Below, piece by piece: positions 19,354-54,420 of a stretch of 64,000 nucleotides of DNA. How positions within the stretch are numbered: position 1 is the stretch's first letter; each line of letters begins with the position of its first letter. The notes below the pieces were generated by a model. That model was not told where the DNA came from and made no database searches. It worked only from the letters and a program-made list of their open reading frames with translations. Made by a program: the position numbers and the translations under genes. This DNA comes from Podarcis pityusensis (Eukaryota): assembly GCA_964106645.2 (NCBI GenBank), contig OZ067039.1. One strand, 5' to 3'.

Positions 19354-19949
19354 CTAAAAAAATAAGCAAGAGTGATTAAGTCCTTTGCAGTTCTTTCTGT
19401 TTCTCACACATGCACACACACAAATATTTCTTATTTCTGGGGAAAAATGCATCTCTGGAAGACTAAACTGTAAAATATGCTAAAAGCATTCAAAACGCCA
19501 AGATGAACTGAACTTTCTGCCTAAAGAAAGGTACTTATACAAACACATGTTGGGCCCTCAAGTTTGCATAGGTCTCATTTATATCATGCAGGGTGAATGA
19601 AATTCCATTCCAACCTGGTTTGACAATGTCGATTTGAGTTCTGCTGAAGACATATTGCAAAGCCCCAAAGATATATGTAGGTCAGAACAGGTCTCAGGAA
19701 ACAAAAAAGCTCTCTCTGTTCTTTTATAAAACTTCAAAACAAGACTACGCCTAAGGAATTTTCCCTCCTTGCTGCTATTGTGAACCTGAATGCTGCAGCT
19801 GAGATCAGTTATTCCTGGGCTTGCCTATTTTGCCTGCCAAGTTGACTGTGATACTTTCAGGGTAAAAAGTGAGCTTACTGTGACTGCTTCTCAAGATACT
19901 TCACAGACAAAATCATCAGATATTTTGTTCCCACTTGAGACGCCACAGT

Positions 19950-20763: not shown

Positions 20764-20879
20764 GCCACAGTTAATGCAGGTTCAATAAGTGTAAACCTGG
20801 GTCCTACTTGCTCTACTTTTTATGGATAGTTTTTCACTTGTGTCACTGAAGATGTGGACAAGATCAAGGTGTTACTTTT

Positions 20880-21580
20880 AGTACAGAGAGCCCTTAACAG
20901 CTTGAGACCAGTTTACTTATGAGATCGCCTTACGTTACATGTGCGCTCTCAATCGCTTCAATCTGCAGAATAGGCACCGTTACAGATGACACACAATACT
21001 CATACCACAGTTGTCACAAATCAGTCTTTCAGTGTGGTGGCGCCTATACTTTGGAATTCTCTGCCTATTGACATCAGGAAGGTGCTTTTGCTGTACACCT
21101 TTTGTCACTTGTTTAAAACATGTTTCTTTAGCCAAGCCTATAATGGCACGTAGATGCTGATGTGTTTTAGATATATGTTTTAAATGCGTTTAAAATTCCA
21201 CCCAGTCTGCAATATTTCATTCTTAGGAAAGGTGCTTAGGGTGCAATGGTGATAAACCTGCAGGATCTCTTCAATGACACAGATTATCATGATCCATTTC
21301 AGTCCCACTTTAGGCAAGATATAGGATGGAGACGGCCATGGTCACTTTTGTGGCTGACCTTTTCCAGAAGCTCACAAGGGAGAGTATCCCTGCTGGTTCT
21401 GCTGGACCTATCAGCAGCTTTCAGCACCATCTATCAGGTTGGGATAGCCTCTGATCCATTTCCAGGCTCTGAATTGAAGGATGAGTATTATGTCCTAAAT
21501 GGCATAGGACTGGGATATTTAAATGCCCATCTACTCCTAGGTGAACTTGCCTTACACATTAAGACAACTTCAGAGGTGTA
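20880..21580 (+). mobile_element. Decayed L2-type LINE fragments
   Basis: ORF-track peptide DPFQSHFR...VSLLVLLDLSAAFSTI matches L2/CR1 RT motifs. Confidence 0.65.
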
Positions 21581-21705
21581 ACCAAAAGTCTTTTCATCAG
21601 ACCATTCCTCCCACCCATCCGCATTGATAAAGTACAGTTTTGGTCTGATCACTTTATCCCCCTAGGAAAGGCAGCAGGGCTGAACAAGCTAAGAATGAAG
21701 CTTAC

Positions 21706-21852
21706 CTTGAACTGTTTCTCTAGCCGAGTCTTTCCTCCAATTCCAGGTATGAGAATGCTATTAACATAGCTATGTAGCTGGTTAGCAGAAACTTCAGTCT
21801 CTTTCCCAAGAATGGCTTCCAACAAGGCATCATGAATAAAAACATACTGCTC
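21706..21852 (-). CDS. PTPRG: PTPRG coding exon (~exon 23), end of D1 and linker
   Basis: [49 protein letters not shown]; acceptor ttctag, donor gtaagc; 147 nt. Confidence 0.97.
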
Positions 21853-22809
21853 CTAGAATGGCAGGAAGCAAATAAAGAATGAAGCAAGCCCATAGTAAGT
21901 GGAGCATAGCTTCTTTAAAGGCAACTGTGTGAAGACTGTGTGAAAAGCGCTAGTTCACCTCCGAGTGAGGTTTGTACATCTACAGCTCTCAGAAGGGCCT
22001 TCTTAGTGCTGGCTTCTTGACTTTGGAATGCCTTCCCCTCTTGAAATCTTTTTGACACCAATTTTGGTTGGTTTTGGTGCCAGCTGAAAGCTTGCCTCTT
22101 TAGCCAGATGTATTAGAACACTGATTTTTTTGAGTAAGGTGTAGAGTTTAGAACTGTTGCCTCGCTAGTTTGATTTTATGTTCACTGTATCCCAACCTGG
22201 ACCATTTGCTTAATGAAGGGCAAGTTAAAAATGAACCAACTAAATAAAAATACTGCTTAGATAAATTTTCAGATTTTCCCCATAGTTATCTCTGCTTGCT
22301 TTTTTTCCTTTTGCAGCTTGCTGTTCTGCTTATTATTATTTTTTATGTACTGAATTTCCCTTTTCTTCCTGTATGCCTCAGTTCCCTTCTTTTTCTAAGA
22401 CTATTTTCTCCTTTACTTTTACAAAAAAGGAAAGTGGTGGTGGTAGTGAGACTTGCATCAACTTTAATCAATTGCTGTTCACCTTTACGAAAGTTCTCTG
22501 TGTTATAAAATATACATTACCTTGGCATACTAAAGGCCTTGTGGATACTAAAGACTGTAAGCCTTTGGGTCTAGTATTTTGAAAATTCTCTGTGAAGTGC
22601 TTGGTTTATTTTAAAAGCGACACAATTGCTAAATAATAATACGACAACTACATGCTTTTGCAAACTGAATTCACAGAAAAACATAAGAAATGCAGTATGT
22701 AACCTATGGAGATATTTCAGTGGAAATTACACTTGGCAGACCCTCTTGCAATATTTAATTGGCGACAATAGCTTGCTGCGGTAAAAACAAATGTGTCTCT
22801 GTGTTTTAC

Positions 22810-22945
22810 CTCTGTCTGGACGAGGTAGTTGCGCTGTGTCCTGATGTGTTTCAGGAAACCCAGGGCGTTAACTGTGCTTTTGTCTTTTATCTGTTGCAGC
22901 ATACTGTCTATAACAATGTAGGTACCAGTCCTGCCAACACCAGCG
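22810..22945 (-). CDS. PTPRG: PTPRG coding exon (~exon 22), P-loop AGVGRTG
   Basis: (S)[45 protein letters not shown]; acceptor tgtcag, donor gtaaaa; 136 nt. Confidence 0.97.
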
Positions 22946-23284
22946 CTGACAAAACAGAAGTTTCAGGAGAAAGGCTAGTTAAACACTAATAAAGAATTGC
23001 AACACCATGCTAATATTGATATACAGTAGACGCTTCTTTACATTCACAAAGTCTTGCTCTTTAGATTTTCTATAATATGCAATGGCCAACTTTCAATTTG
23101 CTTGTAATTGCTGGGATCTTAGGTGTTTCTTTGAATCCTCGCACAAGGAACCTTAGCTCCCAGTGAATGCAGCTTCTGGGCCAAAAAAAGGTTGGCCAGT
23201 CTTGCTCAGCATTTAAAGACAGGTCAGCTGGTAAGATTCATTTTCAGTTGGTGATACTCTCCAGGTTTGAGAGAAACTTGGTGC

Positions 23285-23500
23285 GACTTGGTGGTGTAGC
23301 GGTTAGAGTGTTGGACAAGGATGTGGGGTGCAAATCCCTGCTCAGCCAGGAAGCTCAACTTGGGCCAGTCACAGCCTCTCTGCCTAACCTACCTCACAGG
23401 GTTGTTGTGGGGACTAAATGAGGAGAGGGAGAATCATGTATGCCACCTTGAGCTTCTTGAAGAAAAAGGTGGGCTATGAATGCAGTAAGTAAAATAATAT
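23285..23500 (+). mobile_element. Older Squam3-like SINE
   Basis: ggtggtgtagcggttagagtgttggac head; ctaacctacctcacagggttgttgtgggg body; A-rich tail. Confidence 0.7.
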
Positions 23501-24321
23501 ATTAAATAAATATGTGAACATGCAAATATCTGCAAATTTAGGAAGTACATGTAGCACACACAGCTACTCTTTCCCAAAAAGGAGTCTTACATTTTGCAAT
23601 CAGAACATATTAAGGAATCCCACTGATGAAAGTAGGATTCATTTACTTTTGCCCTTTCTGACAATTAAAAAAGCTCCAAAACATTCAACCCTTTAGCGGT
23701 AATTCAAAGCTAAAAAAAATAAGCCAAAATGTAAGAATACAGCATGTTAAAACAACAATACATTAAAAAGTCTGGAAAAGTTTAAATGTCTTCATCTGAT
23801 GAATTCTTTTCTGAATCTGTTGTGGTTAAAGAAAAAGTTGCAAATGTTCTTGAGCAGCTGTGGTGTGGCATAGGGCAGTTCTGGATTAAACCTATTCGGT
23901 AGAACCTGAAAGCTCTGTCCCATAAAATGACAGCAAGCGATCACAGCATGAAATCCTGCAGCGAACTGCATAATCCTCTAGAATTCAATAAAAACTGCCC
24001 AGTTCTGCTGTGGATTACAGAATTATCAGATCCCAGAAAGTCATTCATCTATATAAGAGAATTTCACCCAGCAATGTGATGTGCTGTGCGGGACAGTTAA
24101 TAAACTTGTATTGGACCAGAGAAATTGAAGTTCAAACTGTGGTTCAGCCAATGATTCAGTGAATGGTGTTGATAAATCACAATCTCTTCCTATTGCAAAA
24201 TGGATATAATTGATTGTAAAGTGCACGATACATATGGGAAATACTGTTATGCTCTACTTCAGTTGTATATTAATCTACAACATGTTGCACGCAAAATTAG
24301 ACTGAACTTGCCCAGCTGTAC

Positions 24322-24485
24322 CTGCAGTGCACAACCACTGGGCCCATCTCAGCAGTCCTGGCTGCAGAGGATCTTCTTACAAATGTCAGCACTGGCAGTG
24401 CATATTCAGGCACACCCATGTCGGGCCACTGTGTGTAGTGATACTGAATGACCGTCCGTTCATTCTGTCGTCCTTTAGGGTTCCC
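24322..24485 (-). CDS. PTPRG: PTPRG coding exon (~exon 21), WPD loop and catalytic His-Cys
   Basis: [54 protein letters not shown](S); acceptor cactag, donor gtacag; 164 nt. Confidence 0.95.
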
Positions 24486-24594
24486 CTAGTGAGCCAGAAT
24501 ATATGAAACACATACAGGAGGAAAACATATTAGTTGGGGATTGAACTGCACCATGTTCAGGTGTGAGATAAGCTTTAACCAGTGCCTATTCTTC

Positions 24595-24925
24595 TAATTT
24601 TTTTTTTTAAATCATTTTCACCTTTTGCAAATATTTTAACAAGAGAAACAAAATCTTTGCAAGTCTAATTTACCTTCCCCTCAACTTCCCTCCTTTCTGC
24701 GGTTATTTATTTTATATCTTTTTATTACTGCACATCTAATTCAAATATATTTACTAATTTTCCCTTATCTTCCCCTTAATTATCTCTTATTGTGCATGTT
24801 TATATCAGTCCCACTAATGTTTTGATTTGTTTACAGTGTATCTTCAAATAGTCAATAATTTCCCCCCCATTCTATTTTAAAAAGTCTCTCTTCTTGATTT
24901 CTTACTCTTTTGGCGAGTTTCTCAA
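24595..24925 (-). mobile_element. L1 LINE 3' fragment
   Basis: Minus strand reads LAKRVRNQEERLFKIEWGEIIDYL, resembling a squamate L1 ORF2 C-terminus, followed by an A-rich tail. Confidence 0.55.
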
Positions 24926-25924
24926 TTTCTTCTTTTAACTTGCTGCAAAAATATATAAATAAAATCACGATACTTTTCTACAAAGACTAAATAAATCACT
25001 GGCAGAAAGGTTGGTCTTTCTTGGTTTTCCATGCCCATGTGCCCCACACCTGACATCATGTTTGGTGTAGGTGTGGGCAGGTGAAGACATACTGGTAGCT
25101 GGATTGACTGCTTGTGCAGCTGATCCCTGCAAAAAGCAGGATTGAACTCTACATGCTTGAGCTGAAAAATAGGATTACATAGGCAAAACAACTGCCTAGC
25201 AATGACTCTCATTCTACAAGCACAGCCATTATTCAAATACCTGCCTCTGTGACCTTTCTTTGTGCATGTAGGGTAGTTGAGCATCCCCAGAACCAATTTA
25301 CTAGTAGAGACATCATTCCATGCCAGAATGAAAGCTCTTCCATTTTATGACAGGATGCCATTGTGGCACTGCAGGCTTTGGACCTTGGGGTCTCAAATTT
25401 CACTGGGGCCCTGTGCAATGCCAAAATTTGGCACCCCCAGCCTCTTGTGGTCCATTCTAAAGCATAGTTGTGACATGCCCAAGGCTCCATATCCAGTGTG
25501 ACCGAACCACAAAATTGCGCTCCCCTAAATCTGCCTCTGGGGTGGGGCCCCTGGAACATTTGAGGACCTGCTGCGACTGACTGGTTACACAATATAAAGT
25601 TGCTCAGCTCTGGAGTGAACTTGACTCTGTAGTTGTTTCAGTTGCAGAAGAAATATCCAATGTAAAGTGCTGGTGATGTGTTGTGGGATTGGTTTCAGCT
25701 TATGCAGTCAGCTGATGTGGACAGGGTGCTGGTGGATACATACCCGTCCATGTGTCCTCTTGTCCCCCATCCCTCCTGCCTTATTAAATCTAGGAGAGTG
25801 CATTTGAATGGCTGGGTCCAGATATTTCATCAAAGAGATATACAGCAGCTGTGTATATCGCACCCAATAGCATATTCCTAGTGTCTATCCTTTGTCCAAA
25901 CCACAATGCAATAACACTTCTCAC

Positions 25925-26059
25925 CTTTTTCATTTTTGCATTCCTGACTGTGAAGCGGCGGACTGTATAGCAAGCATGTATTTTTGTGCTCTTCAATGTG
26001 ACAATGATATTGCCATATTCTTCACTGTTTTCTGATGGCCAGTATTGGTCACATTTTCT
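25925..26059 (-). CDS. PTPRG: PTPRG coding exon (~exon 20)
   Basis: [45 protein letters not shown]; acceptor ttctcag, donor gtgaga; 135 nt. Confidence 0.97.
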
Positions 26060-28634
26060 CTGAGAAAAGACAGAGTAGCATAGGATATTAGATTTTGAAG
26101 CGTGCTAGAGAACACAAGACCAGCAACATGCTAGAAAAGTCTTCCCTCCTTTTTCAGATGACTCTGGCCTGAAACCAGTATCAGCTGCAGCTTCTCAGCT
26201 GATGGGCCAGTTGAGAACGCAGGGAAGCGGTTGTCATCTGGAATGCCCTGGCCCCAGTTACCTTTTCTGCCACACAGGGAGTGAGTGTGAAAGACAGAAC
26301 AACAGAGCCATATTCCATCAGCAGCTGGAGTGGAAAGCTGCACCTAAAAGTTGCCTCCCCTTTGTGCCATCTCTTAGTGGAATTGCAAAAGTGAGTGCTT
26401 CTTGTTTTCTTGGCCTTTTGTTGAACTTAGGTTGCAAGGGCACATTTGGTTTGAGGGTTCTTTGGAAATTATCATTGCCCGCAATGCCCAAACATGGGCA
26501 AGTGTGGAGGGGGGGATGGTACATTTTACTGGGGCCTGGAGAACTACAAGGCTGCAACATCATTACTAGAAGGACAACTGAGGCTACGTTGCAGCCCAGA
26601 GAGACTGTGCTCATGCTGTTAAAAGGGAACTTGCAGTTTGAGGGAGAGATTTGTGCTTTTCCTATGTGACTTGCTCACTGAAGATCCATCAGTCTCAGAG
26701 TTCCTTCTGCAGAGGAAGGAAGGACGGAGAGTTGATGGGGAGGACAAAGCAGAATAGGGTTATTGATCCTAGGGCTAGAGGAAGTCAGTGCTACATGTAG
26801 GATTTGCATGCCCAAAATATATGTGAGTAAATGTCTACTTCATAAGTATCTTACAGATCTTCCTTAGAACTTTCCTTGTGAAACACCGCATCTCAAAAAA
26901 TCTACTTTGGGAAGAGTGTGTGTGACCTCTGCTTCTCTAACTAAATTAGATTTACAAAAAAAGCAGCCAACTTTTGGTGCAGTGTGTGTTGCCCTGGGCA
27001 AGAACATTAAGCTACCTAATTATTTTGTCTATTGTGTGCGAACTTGCAAGGTAAATTGACTTGGGTGAGATAATTCATGATTTCTCAATGAAAAAGGCCA
27101 GAAAAATAAATCTCTGAAGTGAATTGATCTATTTATGAAACATTTGCAGCTTGTTAGTCTTCTAAAAAAACCAAAAACATCAACAGGATAACAACTTCAT
27201 TACGATCAACCAAAAAGTTACAAAATAATCAGCAAGCTTCAAATAACTCTTCTGCTACCAACAATGGCAAATAGTGTGTATATATTTGGGCCTTAGTAAA
27301 AAGGTCCTAGTGTGGACCGCGCTCTGTCAGGCAGTTACCTCAGGTGGCAGGTGTGGGGTTATAAGAAGTGATGGAAAACAGAGTTATTTGTGCCACGCAG
27401 CCTGCCCTGCATCCCTAAATTAGCCTGCTGTCCTCTGACGCAACGAGGAATGCTGACCAATTACCAGTGTTGAAGTAAGAGTCAACTGCCAATCTGGCTG
27501 GCTTCTGTACATGGAATTGTTCTTTACCCCGGTCGGCCAAATGCCTTTGGCCAGCTCTGGCCATGGTAAAATTTCAGAGGTGGAAAGTTTAATTAAAATG
27601 GAAACTTTTCCTTGGTAACATGCTATTCTATGTATGGGTTGTGATCATAGTATGTATGTGGCAGAGGGTCTGCACTGCAAGTTTGTACTGGGCTCCCTAA
27701 AATAATGCTTGGACCATGATCCCTTTTCTTATTGCTGATAGCATGAGTGCTAATGTTGACCTCATTTCAGTCTCTTGTTTGGCTTGTAGCATGAGGATTG
27801 GTCTTTTTAGAATGTTCTGGATCTGGCTCATTTCCTGCATTTTTAAAAAAGAACCCTCAGATTGCTCTAAGCGGCTCTGAGGTTGTTGGTTTTTTTTTTT
27901 GCTATTTGCCTGTGCTCTGGTATGCTGACTGTGAGAGTAAGTTCACCAATGTACTGGGCATGTACATTGTGTACTTTTGGCTACCACTTAGGGGTGCTGA
28001 AGCTGTGTTCTGCTGGATGTTGTGAATTTTTATACTGTTCTATTAAGGAAATGGTGCTTATCCACAGGTTCCTGTATCTATTAAATTGATGGTTAGGTTA
28101 TTATGTACCAAATATTGTTATTTTGTATCAAATACTGTTATGTTTATTGTATTGACTGTCTGACATACTGTTTGGTATGTATTATTGATAGTGTGTTTTA
28201 ATTTTTATTGATGTTGCATTTTTATATATTGTTGCTATTATTTTTGTTTAACTTCGTTACGTTGTTCATTTGAAACTGCTCTGAGAATAATTTTTATGGA
28301 ATCACAGCATACATGTAAGTATGGTAATACTGATGACAGAGAATTCTTCTGGTGCTCTCTCTCTTCCAAACTTGGTTTCCTAGGCCCTCCTTTGTTCAGT
28401 GGTATGCTGCCTTCTCAGGAACCTTCTTTGACTCCTCTTTCTCTAGGGCACAATCAGCTCAGCCAGTGTCAGCCTTCTGCTTCCCCAGACCTTCTGTGAC
28501 CTTAGGAGAGCTCAGCCTATCACTGCTAGAAGCAAGGCTTCAAGCATCACTACCACCACACCCATCCCCTTAGTCTTACAGATCACATAATCACAGTGAG
28601 AAAAGTAGCTAGTGAAAAACTGCATTGCCCTTAC

Positions 28635-28769
28635 TCTTCCTTTTTCCACAAGGTTTGTAATCATGATGATAATTCCAGTGTTTTGCTCCCAAATCATTCT
28701 CCAGAAATCTTCAAATGTAGACTTTAAAGGTCCTTGGGTGGCAATGTAGGCTTTCGCTTTGTTGTAACC
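28635..28769 (-). CDS. PTPRG: PTPRG coding exon (~exon 19)
   Basis: [45 protein letters not shown]; donor gtaagg; 135 nt. Confidence 0.97.
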
Positions 28770-29002
28770 CTTCAAAGAAAACCATAAGGCAAAGCAAGAT
28801 AAAGTATCTGCATGGCAGTCATATTAATAATGTATATATTGCAGTGTGAGATGCCTTTCCTGCTGAACGTTTGAGGAGTCTGGAGCTAAAGTTAGTCAAC
28901 AGCAAAAAAAAAAATATAATAATTCTACAAGTACTAATGGTTTCTATTTCTTCTGTAGGACAGTGTTTCTCAAAAGAGAGATGAGAGCAAAAAACAACTT
29001 AC

Positions 29003-29085
29003 ATCAACATAATTGGCATTAATGTAGTCACTGTGCTTCGAGTCTTTTCCCGGCAAAGGTCTTAGCTTCACTCTACTGTGATCAT
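29003..29085 (-). CDS. PTPRG: PTPRG coding exon (~exon 18), DYINAN motif
   Basis: (Y)[27 protein letters not shown]; acceptor cctgaag, donor gtaagt; 83 nt. Confidence 0.97.
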
Positions 29086-29859
29086 CTTCAGGAAAGATAA
29101 CAAACAGGCACAAAACAGGAAAACATATTAGGAGATTAAAACTATGGATTTCTTAAAAGGACAATTCCCTAACCAGAAAACTAATAAGCACAACTCCCAT
29201 CAGCTCCAACTAGCATGGACGGCGAATGTCCAGGGCTGCTGGGAGTCCAACATCTGGAGGAAACCTTCATTGGCTCTTTTGGGGCTAAACCATTCTTTCC
29301 CTAAAGATTCTTTTTACTACTTATTAAATTTATATGCTGCCCTTCATTTGAAGATCACAAAACTTCTTCCATTCTCAACTGCACCAGTAAAATAATTTGC
29401 TGTCCAGAAAAAAAAAAGTGGCAGAAATGGTCAGCTAAGGGATCAAAAAGTTCTGGGTTTGTTTCTTTCCAGAGCACTTGGAAATGTGACAAACCCATTA
29501 GCAAGTTTGGGAGAGAATGGAACTAGCAAGGATTGTCAAATATGTAGTTCCCTCAAGTCGCTTTTCAGAGATTAGCATACCTAGATCAGACAGTAATTTA
29601 GGCTGAAACATTCAGCTGTGAAATCTTTAGGCAGGATTGCTACTTTCTAACCAAAAGCCAAAAGTATCTAATGTCAGACTGTCAATATCAGTCCTCTCAG
29701 AAAGCATACCTAACAGGGGTATCTTGTCCCTTGGATGAAAACAAACTTTTGTCACTCTAACTAACCTCATGCTAGGCAGACAGGCATTCTTACGCCAGTA
29801 CTGTAGTATAAAGTGGACACTTTTTGTTACTGTTGTCTCTTAAGGCCTTTACTACTCAC

Positions 29860-29956
29860 ATGCTAAAATGTTGATGTATCTGTTTTTGTGCTTGTTGTCG
29901 GGGTGATTGGAATGTTCAGCGGTGATGTTCATGTCAGATGTACAACGCTGCACTTC
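29860..29956 (-). CDS. PTPRG: PTPRG coding exon (~exon 17), start of D1 (KNRY motif)
   Basis: [32 protein letters not shown](Y); acceptor aacag, donor gtgagt; 97 nt. Confidence 0.97.
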
Positions 29957-30466
29957 CTGTTAAGAAAACAATTACATTGAAAAAGGCAGATGAGTGCAAA
30001 ACATTTTGTCTGTCTCATTTTGCAAGCAGCTCATTCAGAACACATTGAAATGGTGGGTGTAATTGATTCTCTTCGCCCATGAGAATTCTTTCAGCATAAC
30101 ACTGCTTAAACATATCCTAGTTCTATTAAGGATATTGCCTGCTTCCCAGTATCTGATATAAGTCCATGGTGATTACAATTCATTGTGGTGCAACCCCCCA
30201 CCCACCCACCGCTTTCCCATCTATCTAGAACTCCCTTAATAGCAGCCAGAATGCGACACCAATGTGGTCACAGGCCTTTTGCTAGCCATTTGCCCAAGGC
30301 TTAATTCTAATTAGAGCACTTTCAGAAGCAGGAACAACATAGCCAAAATAGCAACTCTGCTCTTAAAAGGGTTCTGAGCAAGTTTTATGCCATATAGCAA
30401 CTCACAGTCATAACTCCCCAGGTCTGGTAGAGGAGTGAGTGCCTACCTAGGTAATACAAAGCAGTA

Positions 30467-30695
30467 CAGTAAGCCCACAACTTGTAGGGGGTTACATTCT
30501 GGGGAATCGCCCCTAGAGCTAAAAACGTAAATAGTCAAAACACATTGGGTGCAATGGCAAGTAGGATTGCAGAAGTCTTTTCCCCCAGTTGCCCGTCCAC
30601 TTTTTGACCCTTTTTAATTTTTGTAAAAAAAATGTTTGCCAAGCGTGTAAAGCTGAATGCACAAGGTTAAATGCACATAAGCTGCAGAGTGACTG
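30467..30695. mobile_element. Degenerate Tigger-like MITE
   Basis: TA-CAGT...ACTG-TA termini with imperfect TIR (cagtaagcccacaactt vs cagtcactctgcagctt). Confidence 0.5.
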
Positions 30696-33600
30696 TATTG
30701 AAGAAGTACTTGCAGTTTAGAACAGACTGAATTTACAGTGTTTCACAGGGGCCCAATGTGAACAAGGGTCCTAATGTATCATTAGAGTTCGTCACCAAAA
30801 TAGACAACCAAGGGGGTAAAGTGAAGTGAAAAATGCAAAATAATCAAAATCGGCACATCAACATAATTGAACCACCTTAATTGTGACAACTCAAATATAT
30901 ATAGTCACAGCAGGTGCAGTAATCTTCTAACAGTTTGACTTCACCTCCTCCATTGTCTCTAGACAGACAGATGCCAACACACACACACGTGTGTTGGTTT
31001 CATTTCCCCCCTTAAGATGTGAGTGATTTCTTGTTTATCACATTCCACATTGAAGCCAGTGTTTACTTTGTAGGTGCTGTCTGTCTTCAATGCTTTTTTG
31101 TAACTTTAAATAATAATTAAAATATGTTAACGTTTTGATATTAAATAATATCAAAAAGTGTTAAGTTGGACAACACAGTGATTACACAGTCCTATGTTCC
31201 TCTTAGTCAGAAATGTCAATTCTGCCGTTTATTTTAAGTGTCCTAATTACATTTTAAAAATCTTTTTATAACAATGTAACATTGTTGCTTCTTTCTAGGG
31301 CATTTTCTCAATGTATTTAGCTGAATTTTATCCAAACGCTACTTCGGCAGGGTGCCGTGAGTGCCACCCGTTTCCCCTGTCCTCCCAAGGGTTACAAGAT
31401 GCCACACTGTTTCATACCCCAGGCTTCACGTGTTAATCAGGAGCATCCTAATAAGGGAAGTCATTAGTACAGCACAGCTGCTGCAATGATGGAGTAGGAG
31501 CTAAGTGACAGAGAAAATTATCACGAGAAATGTTAGTGAAACTGCAGATGTAGCCAGAGTGCAGGATTAATACAAAACTGTCATAAAGAAGTGACAAGCC
31601 AATTCATTGCCCTCCCTCCTATCTAGCCCCAAAACATTTACATTTTTTGGAAATCCAAAATATCACAAGTCCAAATATAATTAGAGGCATTTAGACTCAT
31701 AAAGCAGTGGCATTTGCTTTTTTATGGTAAGCAAATCACCATAGTTGTCCAGAAGAAATAAAGAACAAACAAAGAAGCTGAACGGGGTATCAGGTCTAAT
31801 CCTTACATGGAATAATTGACACTAATGTCACTGATTATGTATTCTAGAACAGTGTTTTCACACCAGTAGCTCAGCAGAGAAAGGATTCAGTGATTTAATC
31901 CAAAGGATATTTTTAATTATCAACCATTAATCACTGTGCTGTTTCACTACCCTCCCACTTTTTACATGGTTCTGTAAGGTCTGCAGATTCTGATGATGAT
32001 GCAATCATCATCAGAAAGAGCACCATCAAAAGAGCACCATCAAATGTGTGTGACACAGCAGGAGTAACCAACACAGTGCCATCCGGATGTTGGACTACAA
32101 CTCCCATTATCCTCAGAAGCTGGGGTTGATGGGAGTGCTGTTTAACAACATCTGGAGGGCACCACATTGGCTACTCTGCTTTATAGACTTAAAATGAAAG
32201 TCTCCAGTACAATTTAATGACATTCTATAAAAAAATAGTGATCCAACTTTATCTTAGCGTGTACTGTAGAAGAAAAATGAATGAAGCCAGTGAGGATTCA
32301 AACTTGCTGTAAAAAACACACGCTAGCATATCAGAAATAGAATTCAGTCCCTGTTATTGAATGACCTACAATAAATTTACATAATGCACATAAATTGGAT
32401 CAGTTGCCATTACATCTTGAAGGACCTTTCAGGTGGGACTGGTTTCTAAGGTCAGTAACTTTAATTAACCTTACTGATGCTTAGGGTTTATGGTTTTGTC
32501 CGCTGTACTGCAGCCTCAGTTCAGTGGCAGATTTATATATATGTGCAGTGTGCACAGAATTGCCCCATGCAGATGAGGACCCTGCAAGTTATCAGTATAC
32601 ATTGTTAACTGAGCCGATACCTCTGAAACGACTACAAAAAGTGAACAGTCATTGTTGAATTCTAGTAGCTTAGTTTGTTGCATTTCCCTCATTCTTCATT
32701 TCCCTACTCCTTGATTAAGGTCAGTTGAGGTTGGTTCATTAGAACGACCAGGGCTTAGTCCTATGAAGTTAAATGTCAAGCAATTTTTTAAAAAAGTTTT
32801 CCTCAGAAGCTCAAAGCTATACATTTTCCTGTCCCATACATCTTTCCACAATCCATTCGTATGTAGAAGGATAAGGGAGACATTTCTGCCAATCTCCCAT
32901 TCTTTGGTTAATCAGTTTTCTGCACCACTCAGTCAATCTGAGTCCAAAAGTTTTGCTATGGCTTGGAAATTCCACCCGCCTGTCTCCAATACAGGTAAAG
33001 AGACCATTGCTATCAAGCAAGCAGTACCCAGAAGGGTCAGAGGAAAAAAGGCGGGAAACTGCGGCAGAACATCAAGGAGTGCAATACTTGACCCATCAAG
33101 CATTAGCATACCCACTGAATGTGAAGCTGGAATCGCTGGCTGCTTTACACCAGTCCAAGACTGACCAGATGAAACAGGAGAGTACAACACTGATGGTCCC
33201 ACTGGTTGGTTATCATGGCCCATCAGGATGAGAAGCATGTGGAGAAAACCTCTGCTCAATGTAGCTGAGGGAAAAGGATAAAAATGGCACTCCTGCTTGT
33301 TGTGGTTCTGGGCAGGATGTGCCAACTCTCCACTACTACAACCATCTTCCTCAAGTCAAAGAGGTAATTCAGTAGCCAAGGGGTGGTCCCCAATAACCTG
33401 GAGATCCTACCCCCACCATTCCCTACCATACAAAGGAACAGAGGAAAGGAACAGCACAGATCAAGGGAGGGAAGGAGAAAAATACATACACTGACAGGAA
33501 AAAGCAGCAAGACAGGAGAGGAGGATGCTCAAAACTAAACACTTGTAGTACAAAGAGGAAACAACCTGGGGGGAAGAGTGATTTTGAGAAGAGAAACAGG

Positions 33601-35957
33601 CTGAAAGCATTAGCTCTCACCGCCAACAGGTAGGCTTGGTCAGATGAGAGGGCTGACTTCTCCAGCTTAAGAAGAGTCAAAAGGCTTGAGAAGACCCTGC
33701 CTGATCCCTCTAGTAGATGTCATACCACTCTAGGAATGCCTTCCATTTGGATCTGACAAAGTTAGGAAAGTTGCTTCTTCACTTTGAGCTGCTGTTTCAT
33801 TTATAGATGATTTGGGCCAACTCACAATAAGCTTATATCCTCGTTCAGAAGATATGAGTCAGGTGCTAGGTCACATATTAAAATTACATTTGTGAGCTTT
33901 CAGGAAATAACCAGGAGAAGGGAACTAGCAAATACTCTTGGTTGGCTGGCTTATGTTTGAGTAAGAACTGTATGCATTCTAGAAACATGAAAGTGCTTGC
34001 ATTGTCATACAACCTGAATCTATGTCTTGGCTTGCTTTCCTATGTGTTTGTTCTTACATAAGGAGGGAATCCTTATGGTGCTCGCTTAGCAACTACAGCT
34101 CAGACCCTAAGGAACCAGGTACCCCTTTTATATCTGTCCTGACACAAACATTTTAAGATGTCACATCAAGCAGAAACATGCCATGTTTATTTAAACTTTC
34201 ACAAATTTAAATAATTGGAATAAATACAACAGAAATCACAATCCAGTGGATTTTGCATTTTGGATTTAAGACTCAAAGGTTTTTATATATTTTTAAAATG
34301 GAAGCTGCACTGCAGGTGGTTTAAAATGTTAGCTGTGCTCTAGCTTAGGTAAAAGCAGGAGTAGTTAACCTGTGACTCCAGATGATGCTGAACTTCCATC
34401 ATCCCTGGGCACTGGCCACACTGGCCTGAGCTGATAGAAGACACAGTTCAGCAACATTTGGAGGACCACAGGCTGAGCCACCCCTGGTTTAAAGCCAGTA
34501 TCTAAGGAGATTACATTTAGTTATATATTTAGTAATATTTATATACCATTTGATCAGCAAAAATGTCTAAGCAGGTTACATTACCATGTGCTGTGATTAC
34601 CTTACTAATTCTTAAAAATATATAGAAATATTCCCATTGTCCCAAATTTCTAACAGTTCAAATGCAGGACCACTGGAGTATAAAGCAACAATGGATTGTC
34701 TATTTTAGGATTCTGAAGGGAAAGCTTTCTGGCAGGACTGCACTAGATCATTCTTTTTCCTTATTCAATTTTTTTGTCTCACTGGTTCATATGACATTCT
34801 CAGCGTTTAACTTCCCAAAACGCTAATTTTGTTTAAAGATGAACAGTTACGGTTCTTATTATTTTGTCCACTGGAATGTATTGTCGGCAACTCTGGAATC
34901 CAACACACTTGGTTTTAATCAACCTTTAGTCACAGTTAAAACTCTTCTGTGTCATTATGGCTAATTTAGCTTTTAATTATATTGTCCGTGCTACCACTGA
35001 TTGGGATTTAATACATCCAGGTTTAATGACTCATTCATTTTCAGTGTCCCTCTGAAACAAGTTGCTGATTAGTTTTATAAACTTCAAATATTCTTTTGCT
35101 AAATTTATGTGTAAAATCCAATTGCTACACGTCTGATAATCCAACATAATGAGCTAGAAATTGCTCCGGAATGGCTGATTGCATAGACATTCTGATATAA
35201 CTTCAGACAAGTGAACAAGTTACGACCCTGAGAGCAACATCATAATATGGTTTCCCTGTCAATTGAAAAGAACTCTGAGACAAAAAAAATAAAAAAATTA
35301 AGCAGTAAAATCTATACTTGTAAGAACATGCAAATGCTTCCCTCTCCAATTTGTAGCTATGCAACAAGGTTCTGTTTGCTTCCTTGTGCACTGAACTGTA
35401 GAAAGGCTATTTGGAAATTTCAGAAACCACTCAATAAATAGATGCAAAGTGCAACAGTCTCTTCTACAGGCCTCTGTGGCCCAGCAAGACCTAATTCAAA
35501 CTAAAGCCAAGCTTGTAAAGCTGCAACAAATTTAATGGCAAAGCAAAGAAAGGGTTGGGGCTAAACTAGGGTGGATTAGCAAAAGTAATCACGCCCAGCC
35601 CAGGTGTGAGCTAGCTTCTCATAGGGCTTTATTTTCTGTCTGATACCTAGGGACAATTGTAGCTCTGTACAGGTGCTACAAATCCTGGAAGTAAAAGTGT
35701 GAGAGGTGTGTGAGAGTGCCCTCCCCCATCACTGTTTTTCTTGCCTTCCAATGTGTGGAGGGTGGCTGACTGCAGCAGGGAGTTTCTTATATCTATGGAG
35801 GCTTCTTGCATGTTTTGGGAAATTGGGGTTTCCAAACGCCCAGGAAGCAGCCATGAATACAAAAAGCTCCCTGCTGTAGACAGTTGCCTCTCCTAAGTTG
35901 GTAGGCAATGGAAACCATGCTGGAGGGAGGGCAAAACTGGCACACTTGCCCTTTCTG

Positions 35958-35959
<2 letters not shown>

Positions 35960-35989
<30 letters not shown>
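35960..35989. repeat. (CA)n microsatellite
   Basis: About 15 units; another (CA)n at 14971-15006. Confidence 0.95.
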
Positions 35990-35992
<3 letters not shown>

Positions 35993-38900
35993 TCTTTTCC
36001 AGAATTTGTAACACCTCCATCGTGTCTGTAGAAAATAAGACAACAATGACTCTACAATGGAAGTAGCAAGTGAGTGCAGTTGGAATAATGTTACAGCTAA
36101 GCAAACTGGGTTTGGGAGAGTGCGAATGATGAAGATGGGTAAGGGTATTTAATGACATCCACACCTTGGTGGATCCGACTGAAATCTGTTTTGTCCAGCC
36201 TATGTTTTCAGTAGAATACCATCCAGATGCCCTTGTGAAACAAACAGAGGGATAGATGGAGACAGTCCCCATCCCTTTGTACTCAACACCTCATAATCAG
36301 AGGTATACATCGTTTATAGATTCCATTTTAACAATAGCAGTTAAAAGTCTTCCATAAACTCATTTTTAAAATGAAGTTGTTTAATCTCTCAGCTTTATCA
36401 CATTCTTCCCTTACTACAATGTGGAGGAGATACTGATGCTAACTTACAGGGATGTTGCAAGGAGTGCTGAGATAATGTATGTGAAGGCTTTTTAATGGTC
36501 TGAAGCAGGGGTAGGGCACCTAGTGCCCTCCAAAGGTTGCTGTACTGCCACTGTCTTATCCTTGACCTTTGGCTGGGCTGGCTGGGGCTGATGGGAGTTG
36601 AAGTTCAACAACATCGAGAGTGTTAGAGGTTTTCCAACTCTTTTCTGAAGCACTATGGGCATGCTTATGAGCAGCATTATCTTTTAGCTACCACTCTTTG
36701 GGGATAATCTGTAAGGATCCTGGTATTATTTTTTAAATAGAAATTAGTGAACCATAAAACTATTGCTCCTATGGAAGCTATCAAGTGCAGAATTCTTCCA
36801 CCAGATTTTGTGGACTTATGGCTGTTTTCTTAGCATTTTGGGGGGAAAGAAATTGATGTTTTTTGAATGTATGTCGGGGGATAGCTGCATTGCTTGTTTT
36901 TGGGTCAAATTCCAAGTTGGGGGCTGGATCACAACCCTTGTTTTTCCACAGGCAACAGACAAGGCTTGGGAGATTATATTCACCGCTGCTAATCTTTCTA
37001 GCAGCAAAGATGCCCAACCCACTAATGAATTTGAGGCAAACAAAATTGTATGGGTTCCAAAATCCAATACATATTATGCCATTATAAACATTCCATGCCA
37101 GCACTTTGGGGATTTCCTTGCTTAATCCTCTTTCATGAGACGTGAAGGACAGAACTAAGAACAACCTCCTCCTCCCAATATGCAAGTAAAAGCCTGCTTA
37201 AAGTTCCCAAAGGGGAAGATGGGGAGAGGGATCTACATTCAGAGGGTTGAAGAGTCTTCTTACATTTAAACTCCCTAATGGCATGATTGCCCAAATCCTC
37301 TACAAGGTTGCCAAAATGCAGGCAGAAAAGATAACTTCTAAGTTAGAGAGCAGGAGAAGCAGTGGAGCCCCAAATAAAGACAAACATTCTACCACTACAC
37401 TGTTAAGTTTTAAGCTTTTGAGAGTAAATATAGGACACAGAACATTCTATAGTGCTTTTTCTTCTTGTATCACGCTTTATGAGGAAGAAGGAGAAATCTG
37501 CCAAATGATCCCAAGAGGAGACACAAGTTTGCATGATTGTACAACCATCCATGCCATGTTTTTTTCCTTCCAATTTCCTCCTTTTTTCCTATTTCAGTCC
37601 TGAACACCAACCCCTTAATTTTTGTTTAAGGGGGTTTCCATGTAGGCAACTTATAAAGCACAGATCTACTATAGCCCAGTTCCAGCACTCCGTGCCTAAA
37701 TCAATGTCCCAGAGATGTCATCAGACTTGATGAAGATATGTGAATAGGGGTAGACAGAAAGGTTATCAGTGGTTCTTGTCATCTGATTTCCAAGGCAATT
37801 ATTATGGGAGGGCATATACAGACAAGAATTCCATCTAAGGGGGAAAGCACCTAAGCTCATCATGGTGGACTTTAACAATCAGGCGAGGTGTCTTAAGGTT
37901 ATTTTGCAAAGAGAGTTTGAATGAGAATAGCTCTGTGCTATAATGCATTACCAAGCCTCATCTATTGCTGACAGAACTACTGTTCTGGACTGAGGTAAGG
38001 TATCGCTTGTCATGTCCCACATTGTCCTGGCAGAGCCAGCCCAGAATTGGGCAGAACTTCAGAAAAAGTACAGGTATCTGTTGCTGGTCCTAGTTCTCAT
38101 GGGGTCAAAGAGAAGTCAGCAGATATGAATAACCATTCCAAGACCACCTTCATGGAAGGTACTTCACTTAATAAGGTGGCAGGTTTGGAGGAAACAATGC
38201 AACTTGACTGATATACTCCTCCCTCCCCCGAGAATAGCTCCAACAAGATCACACCCATGATGAAAGATGGCAGCATGTCTGAGCAGAAACCCAGAACTGG
38301 AGGTGCAGTGCTCATCCGGCAGGATGAAGTCAACTATCCCTGAGAGCCACCCATGAAGTAGGATCCAGATTCCTCACATGTACAATATCAGGGTCTGATA
38401 TCAGGCCAGGAAAGGGTGGGAGAGAAACGCCAGCTATGAAGCTACTCATTTGGGGCTACCCAGCACTGAAGCAACATCTAAGCTTCCTGTGTTCTGCATT
38501 ACTCCTTAATGGACAGACTCCCTACTACCTTGGGCAACCTGATCTCTGACTTTTTATACATGTCCCCTTGACAACTTGAATATCGAAGGAAGGGGAAATT
38601 CACAGCCGATTTTCAAGTGTGACTTTTCCAAGAGGGGTTACCTTGGTGAGAAGCAATTAGGAATGTGGCAAAGGTATAGAAATCAGATGGTGTCCCATGT
38701 CTGTCATGGGGAAGCCTAAAAATAGTGGCCTATATGAAGGACAGCTAACAATTCCCAGCAGCCCTAGCCAGTACGGCCAATGATCAGGAATGATGGGAGT
38801 TGTAGCACAACAACATATGGAGGGCACCACATTGGCTTTTGCAAATCCCTTATGGGTTCATTCCACATATACTTTGTGGGAGTGAAGAGATTTTGACTTT

Positions 38901-40713
38901 GAAATAGCAGTTTAAAAATTATTATACTTCCTTTAAAAGAGATACCCAACTTCAGGAATCAAAACTAATAGGCAAAACAATATTTACCGGGTAATTAAGA
39001 GGCAACAAGGGCACCCTGAAGCATTCTGAAAGGCTATTTCAGGAATATATCCCTCTGCTGCACAATGCAGACAGAAGCTGCCTCGCTTTTTGTTAATGGC
39101 AGCGATTTCAGAGACAGCGAAGCAAAGCCTACTTTAAGTCAGTGCAAGTTTACAGATGTGTAGCTGATTATTTTGAATAATTAAATGGTGTCAAAACCAG
39201 CTGTGATGAATAGCACTGGGGTCTCAATTCATAAATAATTGAGGAGACGGCATTGCATTTGATCATTCCCATCAAATTCTACTCTCCCGAGGATAAATGT
39301 TTGTCCTGAATACCATCAACATTGTTAAATGCCTCAATATCCCTGTTCAGTCATCCAGCCAACAGTCAATTTAACTAAATCACTTTTAACACCTCGCACA
39401 GCCGCTGTCCTCATGAATACGAAATGCTTATGATTGGCACAATAGGGTGTCCCCCCCTTATTTTGGTTCGGTTTTTGAATTATCAGACAGTGCGCCTCAT
39501 TGCAAAGGCTATTACCAAAGGGCAGCAATAAGATGCTTGAAAGGGCCATGCTGAAGAAAACGGCTGCAGCCTTAGCTTTGTTACACTGAGGAAAAGGGTG
39601 TTCAGCATCAAAGCAACCATTTTGTGCCAATATCTTATTAGTAAATACAGCTGCCTTTTATGACTCAGTCATGACATTTTTAACACTTGGTTGCTAAAGC
39701 ATGTCATGGCCCCCAAACCATATTTCTCTCCTCTCACCCTGGCGAGATGGCACAACAGCTGCACACTATTTTTGGCTGAGAGGGCTGGGAGAGCCCTCCT
39801 TTCTGACAGTACTTTCAAAGCTCCACTGTGATCAGGCTGAAAGGAATGCGGGGAAGCAGAACGGTTAATACTGGCTTTTGGAATAACTGTTTTAGCTTAT
39901 TAGAGCCTGAGTCTGCCACCCTCATTAAGCATGAAACTGTGTTTATGTAAGCCACACGGGTCTGTAAACCCACAGAGTGCCCGCGACTGTGACTTTGCTG
40001 CGCACACAGCTGCACAGCTATCAGCATTCCTGTATTTAAACATCTTCTTCCACTGCCATTATTTCTGTTTCAGTCCCTAATACTGAGCTCTCCATTTTAC
40101 TGTTATCACAGTTTTTATATTTATAAGATTTCATTCCCAGCCTTCACCATAAGGTCCCAGGACAGGTTACAACAATATAATAATAAAAACGGGGAAATTA
40201 GTTTACAATCACAAAACAAGTTACTCCTTACACTCACTTCAATATGCGGAACTTGCACTTCTACAGGTGCCATGCAATATTAGTTCTGAATTTGCAAAGA
40301 GTCATTCCTTTAGTGTTTCTAAACCATCTTCAAAGACCTGTTGTGCAAATGGAAGTCCTAGCACAGGGCTGACAGGGCCCACTAGGTGAATCCCACCCAA
40401 ACGAGTCTGTGGGCATTGCAGTCACAGTCTCTTTCCTCCTTGCTTGTCTACTAGGAGGCTAGCAGTTGCAAGGTTCAAGAAATCCCACCGAACATCCCAC
40501 ATATAACCGTTCATTACAGACTTCAGGCTGCTTTGTCTTCCATTCTGCCTCTTTCCCAATCAGCAGATGCTCACAGGCATTAGGACTTCTTCAACCCTTC
40601 TATTCAGAGAATCACTTGAGTGCAGTTGGACCTTCGCTCTTCCAAGGCTGCTTGAGACATTTAAATTAAACACCACAGAGAAACTTCCAGCGCTTAAGGC
40701 TGTAAACACGTAC

Positions 40714-40805
40714 CTCAAAGTCTTCTGAGAATCCATGCTGGTTGTTGGCATACAGTTCACTGATATGCTTAACGAATTGTTTGACAGGAATAGCTTCCAT
40801 GTCAT
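40714..40805 (-). CDS. PTPRG: PTPRG coding exon (~exon 16)
   Basis: (D)[30 protein letters not shown]; acceptor tttcag, donor gtacgt; 92 nt, phase 1/0. Confidence 0.97.
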
Positions 40806-42169: not shown

Positions 42170-42782
42170 TATGCTTAGCAGAAGAATTAACTCTCATCCA
42201 CAGGTAGGTTGTAATAATATATTTTCCAATGCAACTAATGTCTCTGAAAGTGATTGAATTCCTATGCTACTTTCATGAGAAGTTAAATTTCTGACAAAGT
42301 GAATAATCCCCCCCCCCAAAAAAATTCCCAATCTACAGCCAAAACCAGTAACACGTCCCTTTCCATGTACCCTTGTTTTAGCATATCTAACTCTAAATTA
42401 CAGTTTTGAAATGTATCTAATAAATGAGATAAACTATATATGTTAAAACAAGGAGGATGACTGGCTCTCGCAGTATGCCATTTTTATTCTGTCTGCTTAG
42501 ACTACAGAGTTGTGACCCTTCCTTGGGGGAATGAGCACATAATAATCTTTTCCACTTGATGTAGAGCATGCAGGAATAGCAAGAAAAACTTGCTTAACCA
42601 AAGGCTTGAAAACTATTGGAATGGGAATAAATCCAACTTTGAAGAGTCCAGCAACTATCTCTACTTTGGGACATTTAAGACACTTCCCATATGTTTTGGT
42701 ATATCAGTGAAAAGGATGAACTAAAGTCAAAGGTAGACTACAACCTCTATTTCATGAAACAATGAATCAATCAAGCCATCAC

Positions 42783-43011
42783 CTGGTGACAAATTATATG
42801 GATCTTCTGTGTCTGAAAGGTATTCAATCACTGTTGAGTTTCCCTGATCGAGCATTTCTTCTTCCTGTTCTTCTTGCTCTCTTCCTCCCTCTTTCCCATC
42901 CCCACCTTGGTCTGTCTTATCTTGCTCTATCTCTTCTTCACTTCCCTCTTCTTTTTTAAATGCACAGCAAATGACATCTCCATACAGGTATTTTGTTTTG
43001 AAGTTTCCCAT
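42783..43011 (-). CDS. PTPRG: Candidate alternative first coding exon of PTPRG: MGNFKT...CC...acidic linker, 76 codons +1 nt
   Basis: agaATGG strong Kozak, in-frame TAA at 43021-43023, donor CAG|GTGATG in phase 1 matching exon 16. Confidence 0.45.
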
Positions 43012-44055
43012 TCTTTCTGGTTAAATTGCCCAGCAAGTTAACACTTGTGGCGGAAGCTACTTGGCATCATGATGGGAAGATCCCACCTCCACTTCCATCT
43101 TTACCAAGCTGTCAGTGGACCAAAGAGCGGAGCATGGCAGGAGCTAAATTTTTCAGTGTTTGAAAGCTTTCACTTTGAAACAAGCTGATCTCTTAAGAGT
43201 TTGTGTGATTCAGTGCTGATACGAGTAACTCAGATAATCTTCAGGTCAACTCCACAATGCCCAGAATTAAAGATCCTGATATTTCAAATGGACTGGGGGC
43301 AGCGGGGCAGAATGACTTATTCTGACAGAAGGTCTAGCTGAGGCAAACATACTGCCAATTCATATTCATTTTATCTTTTTTCCCTTGCCTCAAAAAGCCA
43401 GAGATTAAAGTAATTTGAAGCACTGTGATTCGTCAGTTTAGGACTCTCTGCACAACTATTCCATACAGTCTGCAAATATCAGGAGCATTCTTTTGAAGGA
43501 AAATATATAGTCAGCCAGAAGTAGAGTTTGAAAGTTCTACATTCCAAAAATGCAGTCATTGTTCGAAAATTCCACTGCATTCTTTGCTCATGCACTCTAA
43601 ATGCCTCCTCAAATAAAATCTGCTAATGCATATGAGGAACATGCTTCTTTCAGGTACCTCTTATCTAGTGGCTACTGATAAGCTTCTTTTCCATTTCAGG
43701 AAAATTTACTTCAGAGACCATACCTCTTTTAGTCTACTGAAGAGATTAATGAAATCCTATAAAGGCTAATTAGGAAACCTAACAGTTGCTCAGTGCAAAG
43801 TCCCATTTGGGCAATTAGCTTTCTCCTTGCCTAAAACCGGGCAGCATTCATTAGTGTCACAGTGGAAAAAACCTTCTTGTCCCAACATTCAATAAATGGG
43901 AGGATATATTTTGTGTTAATAGCCATTGTTCATACTTTTTATTTTATTTATTTTGATTCTTCTTCATTCTGTCTCAGAGGCTTATATGTCCTTATGTCAT
44001 GTCAGTATGGATAAATAAGTATTTTAAAAATTAAGTAGGTTCTCTTGTTTCAATT

Positions 44056-51810: not shown

Positions 51811-53011
51811 TAGGGATTCCAACTTCCTATGTTCCCAATAACTGAAAGATAACTGTAACGCTCAAACCAGTGGCCAACCAGCAGCCAACCCACTACCTCA
51901 GGAAAAACTGTGACAATTCCAACATGCCTTTGAAAAAAGCTTTGAGTTTTCATTGCTCTAAGGCAAGAGTAGGGAAACTTTGGCCCTCCAGTTGTTGCTG
52001 GACTACAAACTCCATCATCCCCGACTATTGATCCTACTGGCTGGGAAGGATGCGAGTTGTAGCTCACAACATCTGGACAGCACCAAAATAGCTACCTGTG
52101 TTTCAAGGCATAAAGAGCTGTGTACAACAGACAATATGCAAATCTTCACATCTGTCTGGCTTTGGCTCACAAATTTCTGCTGAGAACCATTCCATATATA
52201 ATTACTTCAAGGCACTTGACAGATTGTAAAATAGTAGGCATGTGCGTTGATATTTTTAATTAACCAGTAAATAAGCATTAGGACCAAGTCTGCAGCTACT
52301 CTAACAGCAATCTTCTCTTTACTGAGAAGTAAATCCCACTGCTTAGTTTCCAGTAAGTGTATTTAGGATTGTATTTAGGACTAAACTGATACAACTTTGC
52401 CTCAAGCAAAACCTATGCATCTTATTTGGCCACTTACATTTAAATGAGAGTTTTCCTATAAAACAGTACTGCGTAGGTGGGATCTCCCCCTGCCCTCAAA
52501 AGGTCACAGGCAGCCTGGCAAGCAAAAGTCTTCATTACGCAGACCTGGCAACTGGAGTTCCACTTGCACTGCAATCCAACATTACCTGGGAGTAAGTCTC
52601 AGTGAATGTCAGGATTTCTGTGTAGACATTCATAAGATTGTCCTGCACAGCTGGAGGCCAGAGAAGGTGCAGACTACGAACATCAGTGAACAAGAAGGAT
52701 GGAGTAAGTGATTAATGGCAAAAGGGCAGAGCGAGGAAAGTAGAAGACACATGGGGACTCCCCACTATGATACCATCAGTGCTTTGTGCCTTATCCAGAT
52801 AAGAAAGCACTAATCCAAACTCTGTGTTCCCCCCTCATTTTAATGAAGATTTACAGAAATATTACTACACACTGCGGGATGCTCCAAATGTATAAAGAAG
52901 TCAGCCAATGTGGGAAGCGGACTGACTGATACAGAACATACAGTGCAAACTGTGATTTGTAAGGAGCCCAAAGTATGAATGAGTTAAGTCATGATGTCAG
53001 ACCTTCCTTAC

Positions 53012-53103
53012 CTGGGATGGGAATAACAGGAATGGTTTCGTTTGGCACCACTCGAGGCGAACTGCTGTCTTCCACATAGAAATGAGCTGTCTGAAAACAT
53101 TTT
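53012..53103 (-). CDS. PTPRG: PTPRG coding exon (~human exon 15), juxtamembrane region
   Basis: Translates (R)[30 protein letters not shown](D); acceptor cacag, donor gtaagg; 92 nt, phase 2/1. Confidence 0.97.
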
Positions 53104-53831: not shown

Positions 53832-53923
53832 CTGTACTTAATGCAAAGCAGGGAGCACAAGCTGGTCATCACAGAGAAGGCACTGAGGAGGAGAGCATCC
53901 AGAGGTCCAATGAGCCTGTGCAT
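53832..53923 (-). CDS. PTPRG: Candidate alternative first (or cassette) coding exon of PTPRG: hydrophobic N-terminus MHRLIGPLDALLLSAFSVMTSLCSLLCIKY(R)
   Basis: accATG context, in-frame upstream TGA at 53969-53971, donor CAG|GTAAAA in phase 2 matching exon 15, CpG-rich region upstream. Confidence 0.6.
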
Positions 53924-54420
53924 GGTGATGCTAAGCAAGGCAGGGCTTTCCAGCAGCCACGTCACTGCTCATTGCTGCCTTAATGAGCTGCTTGAGGCTG
54001 GGACTGAATATTTAATGAGCCTTGCTCAGCGTGAGCAGCTATTGTGACAAGCAGAGGGGCTGCTCTCAGCTGTCAGGAGCTCTTAACAATAGCCTGGACA
54101 GAGCAGAGAGAGAGAGAGCCCTCTTCCTGCCTCCCTTAATGAACTGCTGCTCCTCAACACCTGTGCGGGGTCCTGAACGCCTCCGCCTCCGCCGCGATTA
54201 GCTTCCCCGGCACGCAAGCCACTGCCTCTGCTTGTAAAGGTTTGCAGCGGTCTCTCTTCCGCACAGCACGGCTTCTGGAATTACGGCCAAGCAGAAAAGC
54301 CCACTCCATCCCGCCAGCTTTGCTGACACTGTCAAAGCAATTTGTAGTGCCATTGTTTCCAGAACAGAGGTACATAGCAGAGGGCTTGGGGGGGGGGTGC
54401 AGGGGGGTGCAGAGAGAAAA
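53924..54420 (-). promoter_or_regulatory. Putative intronic promoter / 5' UTR of the short PTPRG isoform
   Basis: Locally GC/CpG-rich (54160-54320), CRE-like TGACGTG at 53958-53964, three TAATGA motifs (53981, 54013, 54137), G-runs at 54382-54406; no recognisable repeat. Confidence 0.5.

Follow-up and report, generated by a model that had tools for sequence, protein, structure and literature searches.

Several receptor-type protein tyrosine phosphatase genes, including PTPRE, PTPRO (PTPROt) and PTPRR, give rise to shorter phosphatases from internal starts. Mouse 'catalytic' Ptprg (AK144283), which lacks the ectodomain and the transmembrane helix, is made from an alternative 5' exon that was confirmed by RACE (Forrest et al. 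2006, PMC1431701). Ptpre and Ptpro also have receptor-less forms from internal first exons (PMC1431701), and the short forms PTPROt and PTPRR are transcribed from alternative promoters (PMC9900141). The short forms of PTPRE, PTPRO and PTPRR either are cytosolic or keep a transmembrane segment, and none is described as myristoylated in the available excerpts of the two papers (PMC1431701, PMC9900141). The excerpts of two PTPRG reviews report that rat has four splice isoforms, describe a soluble ectodomain and mention no lipid-anchored form (PMC8773835, PMC8766859), and inhibition of PTPRG by head-to-toe dimers is also described (PMC8766859). Receptor-less forms of receptor phosphatases, mouse Ptprg included, are known in this way, and none in the excerpts of the papers compared here trades its transmembrane helix for a lipid anchor.

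Dually acylated N-termini occur in ABL1 (exon 1b), PDE2A3 and DUSP15/DUSP22, none of which is a classical receptor phosphatase, and in ABL1 1b and PDE2A3 the anchor is gained through an alternative first exon. The consensus for N-myristoylation is G-x-x-x-S/T, and in eNOS myristate is needed before palmitate (PMC5492501). Exons used both as first and as internal exons are common in human, and their class changes between species (PMC11797052; bioRxiv 2021.05.27.446076, Fiszbein et al.); these hybrid exons arise by the gain of a 3' splice site or of a promoter (PMC11797052).

In this study, a candidate first coding exon for a short PTPRG isoform was analysed in a 64-kb stretch of genomic DNA from the lizard Podarcis pityusensis, referred to below as the window. 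Like mouse catalytic Ptprg, the predicted product would be PTPRG without ectodomain or transmembrane helix, encoded from an alternative 5' exon. The mouse exon, in contrast, is spliced to exon 15 and lacks an MG start, whereas the candidate exon would skip exon 15 and add a predicted lipid anchor and an acidic linker. The candidate resembles eNOS in combining a myristoylation consensus with downstream Cys residues; unlike PTPRG, eNOS is not a classical receptor phosphatase, no homology is claimed, and the Cys pair of the candidate lies 13-14 residues after Gly2. In the open-access literature, as judged from the papers listed, no article was found that deals with this exon or describes PTPRG as myristoylated.

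The candidate exon and its host gene

The following features were identified; exon numbers follow those of an earlier reading made from the letters of this DNA (the sequence-only reading).

8052..40805, minus strand: PTPRG exons 16-30 (15 exons, 620 aa), encoding D1 with KNRY, WPD and HCSAG, and D2, where the catalytic Cys is replaced by Asp
40714..40805, minus strand: PTPRG exon 16, phase 1, the start of the crystallised D1 region
42783..43011, minus strand: candidate exon (76 codons plus 1 nt) that would open the coding sequence of a short PTPRG isoform, in frame with exon 16 in sequence and translation
42783..42960, minus strand: conserved acidic core, residues 18-76 (21 D+E, 5 K+R), very likely orthologous to a 60-aa insert of Sceloporus
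42964..42969, minus strand: Cys15-Cys16, predicted S-palmitoylation sites, within a pyrimidine-rich stretch 5' of the Sceloporus acceptor position
42994..43011, minus strand: ATG and Gly2 to Thr6, with A at -3 and G at +4, fitting the N-myristoylation consensus and kept in a relative's open reading frame (P0001)
43021..43023, minus strand: in-frame TAA four codons 5' of the ATG
53010..53012, minus strand: exon 15 donor, phase 1, opening the 12,206-nt intron 15
53832..53965, minus strand: other alternative first exon, with an ATG at 53923 and a phase-2 donor that joins it to exon 15; it is conserved in mouse and in birds

The host gene is PTPRG, since the exons downstream of the candidate encode its D1 and D2 domains. 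Exon 16 was identified by PDB entry 2hy3, all PDB matches being PTPRG (the N-terminus of D1 constructs), and the translation of exons 16-30 was identical at 620 of 620 residues to Podarcis raffonei PTPRG isoform X3 (P0057). The sequence-only reading had proposed an ATG in a strong Kozak context, an upstream in-frame TAA, 76 codons in 229 nt and a phase-1 donor, all of which were confirmed on the letters of the minus strand: three codons separate the TAA (43023-43021) from the ATG (43011-43009), and the exon ends in phase 1 at 42783 with a GT directly after it. Its further proposals agreed with our results as well, in that the candidate donor and exon 16 are both in phase 1 and therefore in frame, the 76 codons and the 620 residues of exons 16-30 add up to the 696-aa isoform that it had predicted, and the start, with Gly after the initiator Met and Thr four residues later, fits the G-x-x-x-S/T consensus (PMC5492501).

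The open frame alone is not beyond chance in intron 15, the sense strand of which holds 11 stop-free stretches of at least 76 codons. The candidate is the sole acidic one among them, with an E+D fraction of 0.28 versus 0.03-0.09 in the other long open stretches. The reading frame also runs 18 codons beyond the donor (42727-42782, minus strand); P0001 stops 9 codons past the donor, so this extension is not kept.

The exon at 53832..53965 corresponds to the published receptor-less form. A 21-base part of the primer of Forrest et al. had a single match in the window, at 53945-53965 with one mismatch (reached in 0 of 100 shuffles), which falls in the 5' UTR of this exon. Its peptide shares 23 of 30 residues with the start of the finch isoform P0028 (28 members), and its donor is strong (8.8 bits, reached by 0.6% of intronic GTs). 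A receptor-less PTPRG was thus already known, from a different exon than the candidate. The peptide of the other first exon has a hydrophobic N-terminus, and the DNA upstream is GC-rich (0.56).

Comparison with an internal exon of Sceloporus

Sceloporus undulatus PTPRG RefSeq isoform X3 (P0048) carries a 60-aa insert exactly between exons 15 and 16. Residues 18-76 of the candidate aligned with this insert without gaps over 59 columns, 18 of which were identical, with a score of 61. That score was reached in none of 5000 full shuffles and, when local composition was kept by block shuffling, in 0, 1 and 1 of 5000, and the score of the C-terminal 19 residues alone was reached by 10 of 20000 shuffles. 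Among the 17 offsets tested, only the offset of -17 scored above 4. The two segments also agree in intron, phase, length (59 versus 60 residues), overall composition and in their counts of acidic and basic residues (21 D+E and 5 K+R in each); in Sceloporus, unlike in the proposed isoform, the segment is an internal exon of the full receptor and begins at candidate residue 18 (Phe18).

Orthology of the two segments is very likely because they share the same intron and the same phase and are in register at both ends, and it is this match to the Sceloporus exon that raises the candidate above chance. The comparison thus points to a spliced orthologue that shares position and phase with the candidate, at the protein level and in one species, P0048 being an automatic annotation. 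The claim of the sequence-only reading that this is a coding exon spliced in frame to exon 16 is supported by the insert, and the candidate segment is very likely a real coding exon joining exon 16 in frame. RefSeq X isoforms usually have RNA-seq as their basis, and the lacertid and iguanian lineages split well over 100 million years ago. Removing the 29 aa of exon 14 and the 60 aa of the insert from Sceloporus X3 (1499 aa) gives the length of X7 (P0040, 1410 aa), which implies that the Sceloporus annotation has the insert in combination with further alternative exons.

A database query with exon 16 gave 508 matches, of which 120, all cluster representatives, were examined. Among the 120 matches listed, 93 join exon 15 directly, one (P0048) carries the insert, and 26 are genomic read-throughs or partial models, which are uninformative on splicing. 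By name, 32 of the rows listed are from squamates (11 species), and the insert was found in P0048 only; both Podarcis rows (P0027 and P0057) are without it, no lacertid protein containing the exon was found among the rows listed, and none of the 120 proteins starts with the candidate peptide. The exon is probably restricted to squamates.

Searches with the candidate peptide itself returned P0001, a genomic open reading frame of a relative, as the only candidate (1/1) among proteins of 41-133 aa, and none of the 23 candidates among proteins of 134-2000 aa (90% cluster representatives) matched. A phmmer search gave two matches, P0001 and P0002 (E 4.7e-4); the latter is repetitive and looks like a fish-type immunoglobulin chain, and was set aside as unrelated. 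In the ESM Atlas, the candidate peptide had no usable match, and residues 815-915 of P0048 had matches only below 0.9. Among sequencing runs, 23 rows were listed, 15 of them presumed to be RNA (shares 0.05-0.33), 6 of unstated kind (0.64-1.00) and 2 without a share; they speak neither for nor against the junction. P0001 keeps the MG, Thr6, the Cys-Cys pair and the frame through six substitutions and a one-codon (3-nt) deletion. Since P0001 is a genomic read-through that was found because it is intact, it lends weak support to first-exon use, and at a divergence of about 8% it cannot show selection.

Use as a first exon or as a cassette

The features that bear on the splicing of the candidate are listed below.

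42777..42785, minus strand: candidate donor, phase 1, weak to moderate (4.2 bits)
42947..42952, minus strand: two weak in-frame AG acceptors (scores 1.5 and 0.4), giving exon starts at 42950 and 42947 and a cassette of 168 or 165 nt
42960..42962, minus strand: position aligned to the Sceloporus acceptor, reading CAT, without AG, by the protein alignment
43016..43018, minus strand: weak in-frame AG acceptor (score -0.4), giving an exon start at 43016 and a 234-nt cassette
43038..43135, minus strand: four upstream ATGs opening short uORFs (7-13 codons), all within 125 nt, one with a strong context at 43098

We assign a probability of about 0.55 to the reading in which the candidate acts as a first exon, or as a hybrid first/internal exon, and gives rise to a predicted myristoylated, probably palmitoylated, receptor-less PTPRG. 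The segment has an in-frame ATG in good context, a donor and no good acceptor, as judged by rough matrices built from 15 sites of the PTPRG gene, by which the donor is also weak: its score lies below those of 14 of the 15 true donors (leave-one-out) and is equalled by 12% of 652 intronic GTs. The three in-frame AGs all score below the 15 true acceptors (4.5-13.9) and are matched by 23-34% of 829 intronic AGs. At the position aligned to the Sceloporus acceptor, the AG of which we infer from the join in the Sceloporus protein, the Podarcis pityusensis DNA has none, and P0001, which also has Phe at codon 18, cannot supply the acceptor G either.

The start itself was compared with the rest of the window. 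Of 63,450 overlapping anchors taken across the window, 2.1% were preceded by any MG start and 0.12% by an M-G-x-x-x-S/T start in frame within 25 open codons, the latter being a post hoc figure, as the finding had been picked for its myristoylation motif. Three of the 257 ATGs of the intron fit a looser pattern, and the candidate is the sole one of these that opens more than 11 codons. The Cys-Cys pair is not independent evidence because its codons lie within the pyrimidine-rich stretch that precedes the aligned acceptor position and may be a remnant of this tract.

No promoter signal was detected upstream of 43011, in the form of a nearby TATA or CpG enrichment; the CpG observed/expected ratio is 0.24 at the candidate, compared with 0.20 over the whole window, and the other first exon has a ratio of 0.38. 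The four upstream ATGs limit a uORF-free 5' UTR to less than about 55 nt. The candidate would correspond to described hybrid exons in that a single exon would open some transcripts and lie inside others, the internal use being annotated in Sceloporus and the first use being proposed here. Described hybrid exons have starts typically centred on the 3' splice site, going by the excerpts of that literature, whereas transcription of the candidate would have to start 50 nt or more 5' of the aligned acceptor, with coding sequence gained as a result. The interpretation given by the sequence-only reading is supported in part: the coding exon and its frame held, whereas the first-exon role is a proposal, the sole transcript-type evidence being that the last 59 codons are internal in Sceloporus.

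The best-surviving alternative, which we consider less likely, is that the exon is used as a cassette only, inserted between exons 15 and 16 by way of the AG before 42950 or 42947 (or 43016). The full receptor would then gain about 55-78 acidic residues in its juxtamembrane region, which would place D1 farther from the membrane and might alter inhibition by dimers, and the MG start and the Cys-Cys pair would be accidents of intron and acceptor sequence. Such a use would agree with the internal exon annotated in Sceloporus X3, with phase 1 at both ends and open frames from 43016, 42950 and 42947, and with the missing promoter signal upstream of 43011. GAAGA words are also frequent in the exon, the 229 nt of which hold 8 of them, or 35 per kb versus 2.1 per kb in the intron (a 16-fold higher density), and such words can assist weak splice sites. 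The absence of the aligned acceptor AG, the weakness of the alternatives relative to 15 of 15 true acceptors and the lack of the insert in P0027 and P0057 speak against a cassette, under which the in-frame MG start would also be a coincidence at the 0.1-2% level. A lipid-anchored isoform is the likelier, though putative, use of the exon in Podarcis pityusensis.

It is improbable that the segment is a dead exon, an ancestral squamate exon that lost its acceptor in this lineage and has gained no stop yet. The absent acceptor AG, the weak donor and the fact that none of the rows listed is a lacertid protein containing it would be expected of such a relic, but the 76 codons are free of stops, the core aligns without gaps with the Sceloporus insert at equal acidic and basic counts, and the frame of P0001 survives a 3-nt deletion.

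Least probable is a chance purine-rich frame or a transposon remnant with a merely compositional likeness to Sceloporus, a reading suggested by the 69% purine content of the exon and by a stretch of the PTPRG ectodomain that is acidic but unrelated, which scored 48 without gaps at the best of some 200 offsets versus 61 for the insert and gave similar BLASTP E-values with composition adjustment off, but opposed by the shared intron and phase, the register of both ends within one codon, the block shuffles and the C-terminal test, and composition-adjusted E-values of 5e-5 for the insert versus 0.19 for the ectodomain stretch. The exon is thus probably not a chance frame. The sequence-only reading had named a LINE ORF1 remnant as something to exclude, and no transposon signal was found by the checks made, which covered copies in the window, Pfam and tandem repeats: the candidate had no second copy elsewhere in the 64-kb window and matched 0 Pfam families. 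A tandem-repeat scan found two short arrays, one of which (29 nt) lies inside the candidate exon, and an Rfam scan of 41000-46000 gave 0 matches.

The predicted product and neighbouring elements

In the lipid-anchored, receptor-less reading that we prefer, an internal promoter would start transcription just 5' of 43011, and translation would begin at the ATG at 43011, the context of which is favourable. The donor at 42783 would be spliced in frame to exon 16, a join that is known as the orthologous protein junction in Sceloporus. After removal of Met, NMT would be expected to acylate Gly2, and Cys15/Cys16 would provide a second membrane signal; palmitate is proposed for this role because the first 17 residues hold only two lysines. 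The 59-residue acidic and probably disordered linker would then separate the intact D1-D2 region from the anchor. KNRY would lie 114 residues from the lipid anchor in the proposed isoform; in the plain receptor it is 85 residues from the helix, and in P0048 the distance is 174. The phosphatase activity would presumably be uncoupled from extracellular ligands, so that membrane substrates could be dephosphorylated free of ectodomain control.

Internal use in Sceloporus would be explained by an acceptor inside the exon, the AG of which is missing in Podarcis pityusensis. The more extended proposal, which we advance tentatively and at slightly less than even odds, is a squamate exon of dual use, in which the exon's own promoter would yield a myristoylated and palmitoylated receptor-less phosphatase and a single base would decide, lineage by lineage, whether the exon is spliced into the receptor. 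If this dual-use proposal is true, a transmembrane receptor phosphatase has been re-anchored by lipids through one new exon. A lipid-anchored isoform would offer a natural test of how the type of anchor and the length of the spacer affect PTPRG activity and dimer-based inhibition, and the exon would provide a traceable switch between first and internal use across lizards. If the exon is a cassette only, it would represent a modest splice variant confined to a lineage, with no description so far in the open-access literature searched.

Several other elements were observed in the window. A 248-nt element at 50424-50671, with 26-nt terminal inverted repeats and starting at TA, is presumably a Tc1/mariner-type MITE, and an apparently similar element lies at about 41925-42228. 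About 1 kb upstream of the candidate ATG, an element at 44050-44311 (minus strand) follows a GAA run and resembles a Sauria SINE. Intron 15 also holds a 95-nt repeat twice, at 46170-46264 and 51661-51754, in opposite orientation and with 85% identity, a weaker copy of which lies near 62151-62226. Two runs of N, at about 1960-2100 and 7850-8010, total 295 bases, and the second of them lies just past the PTPRG stop, in the 3' UTR.
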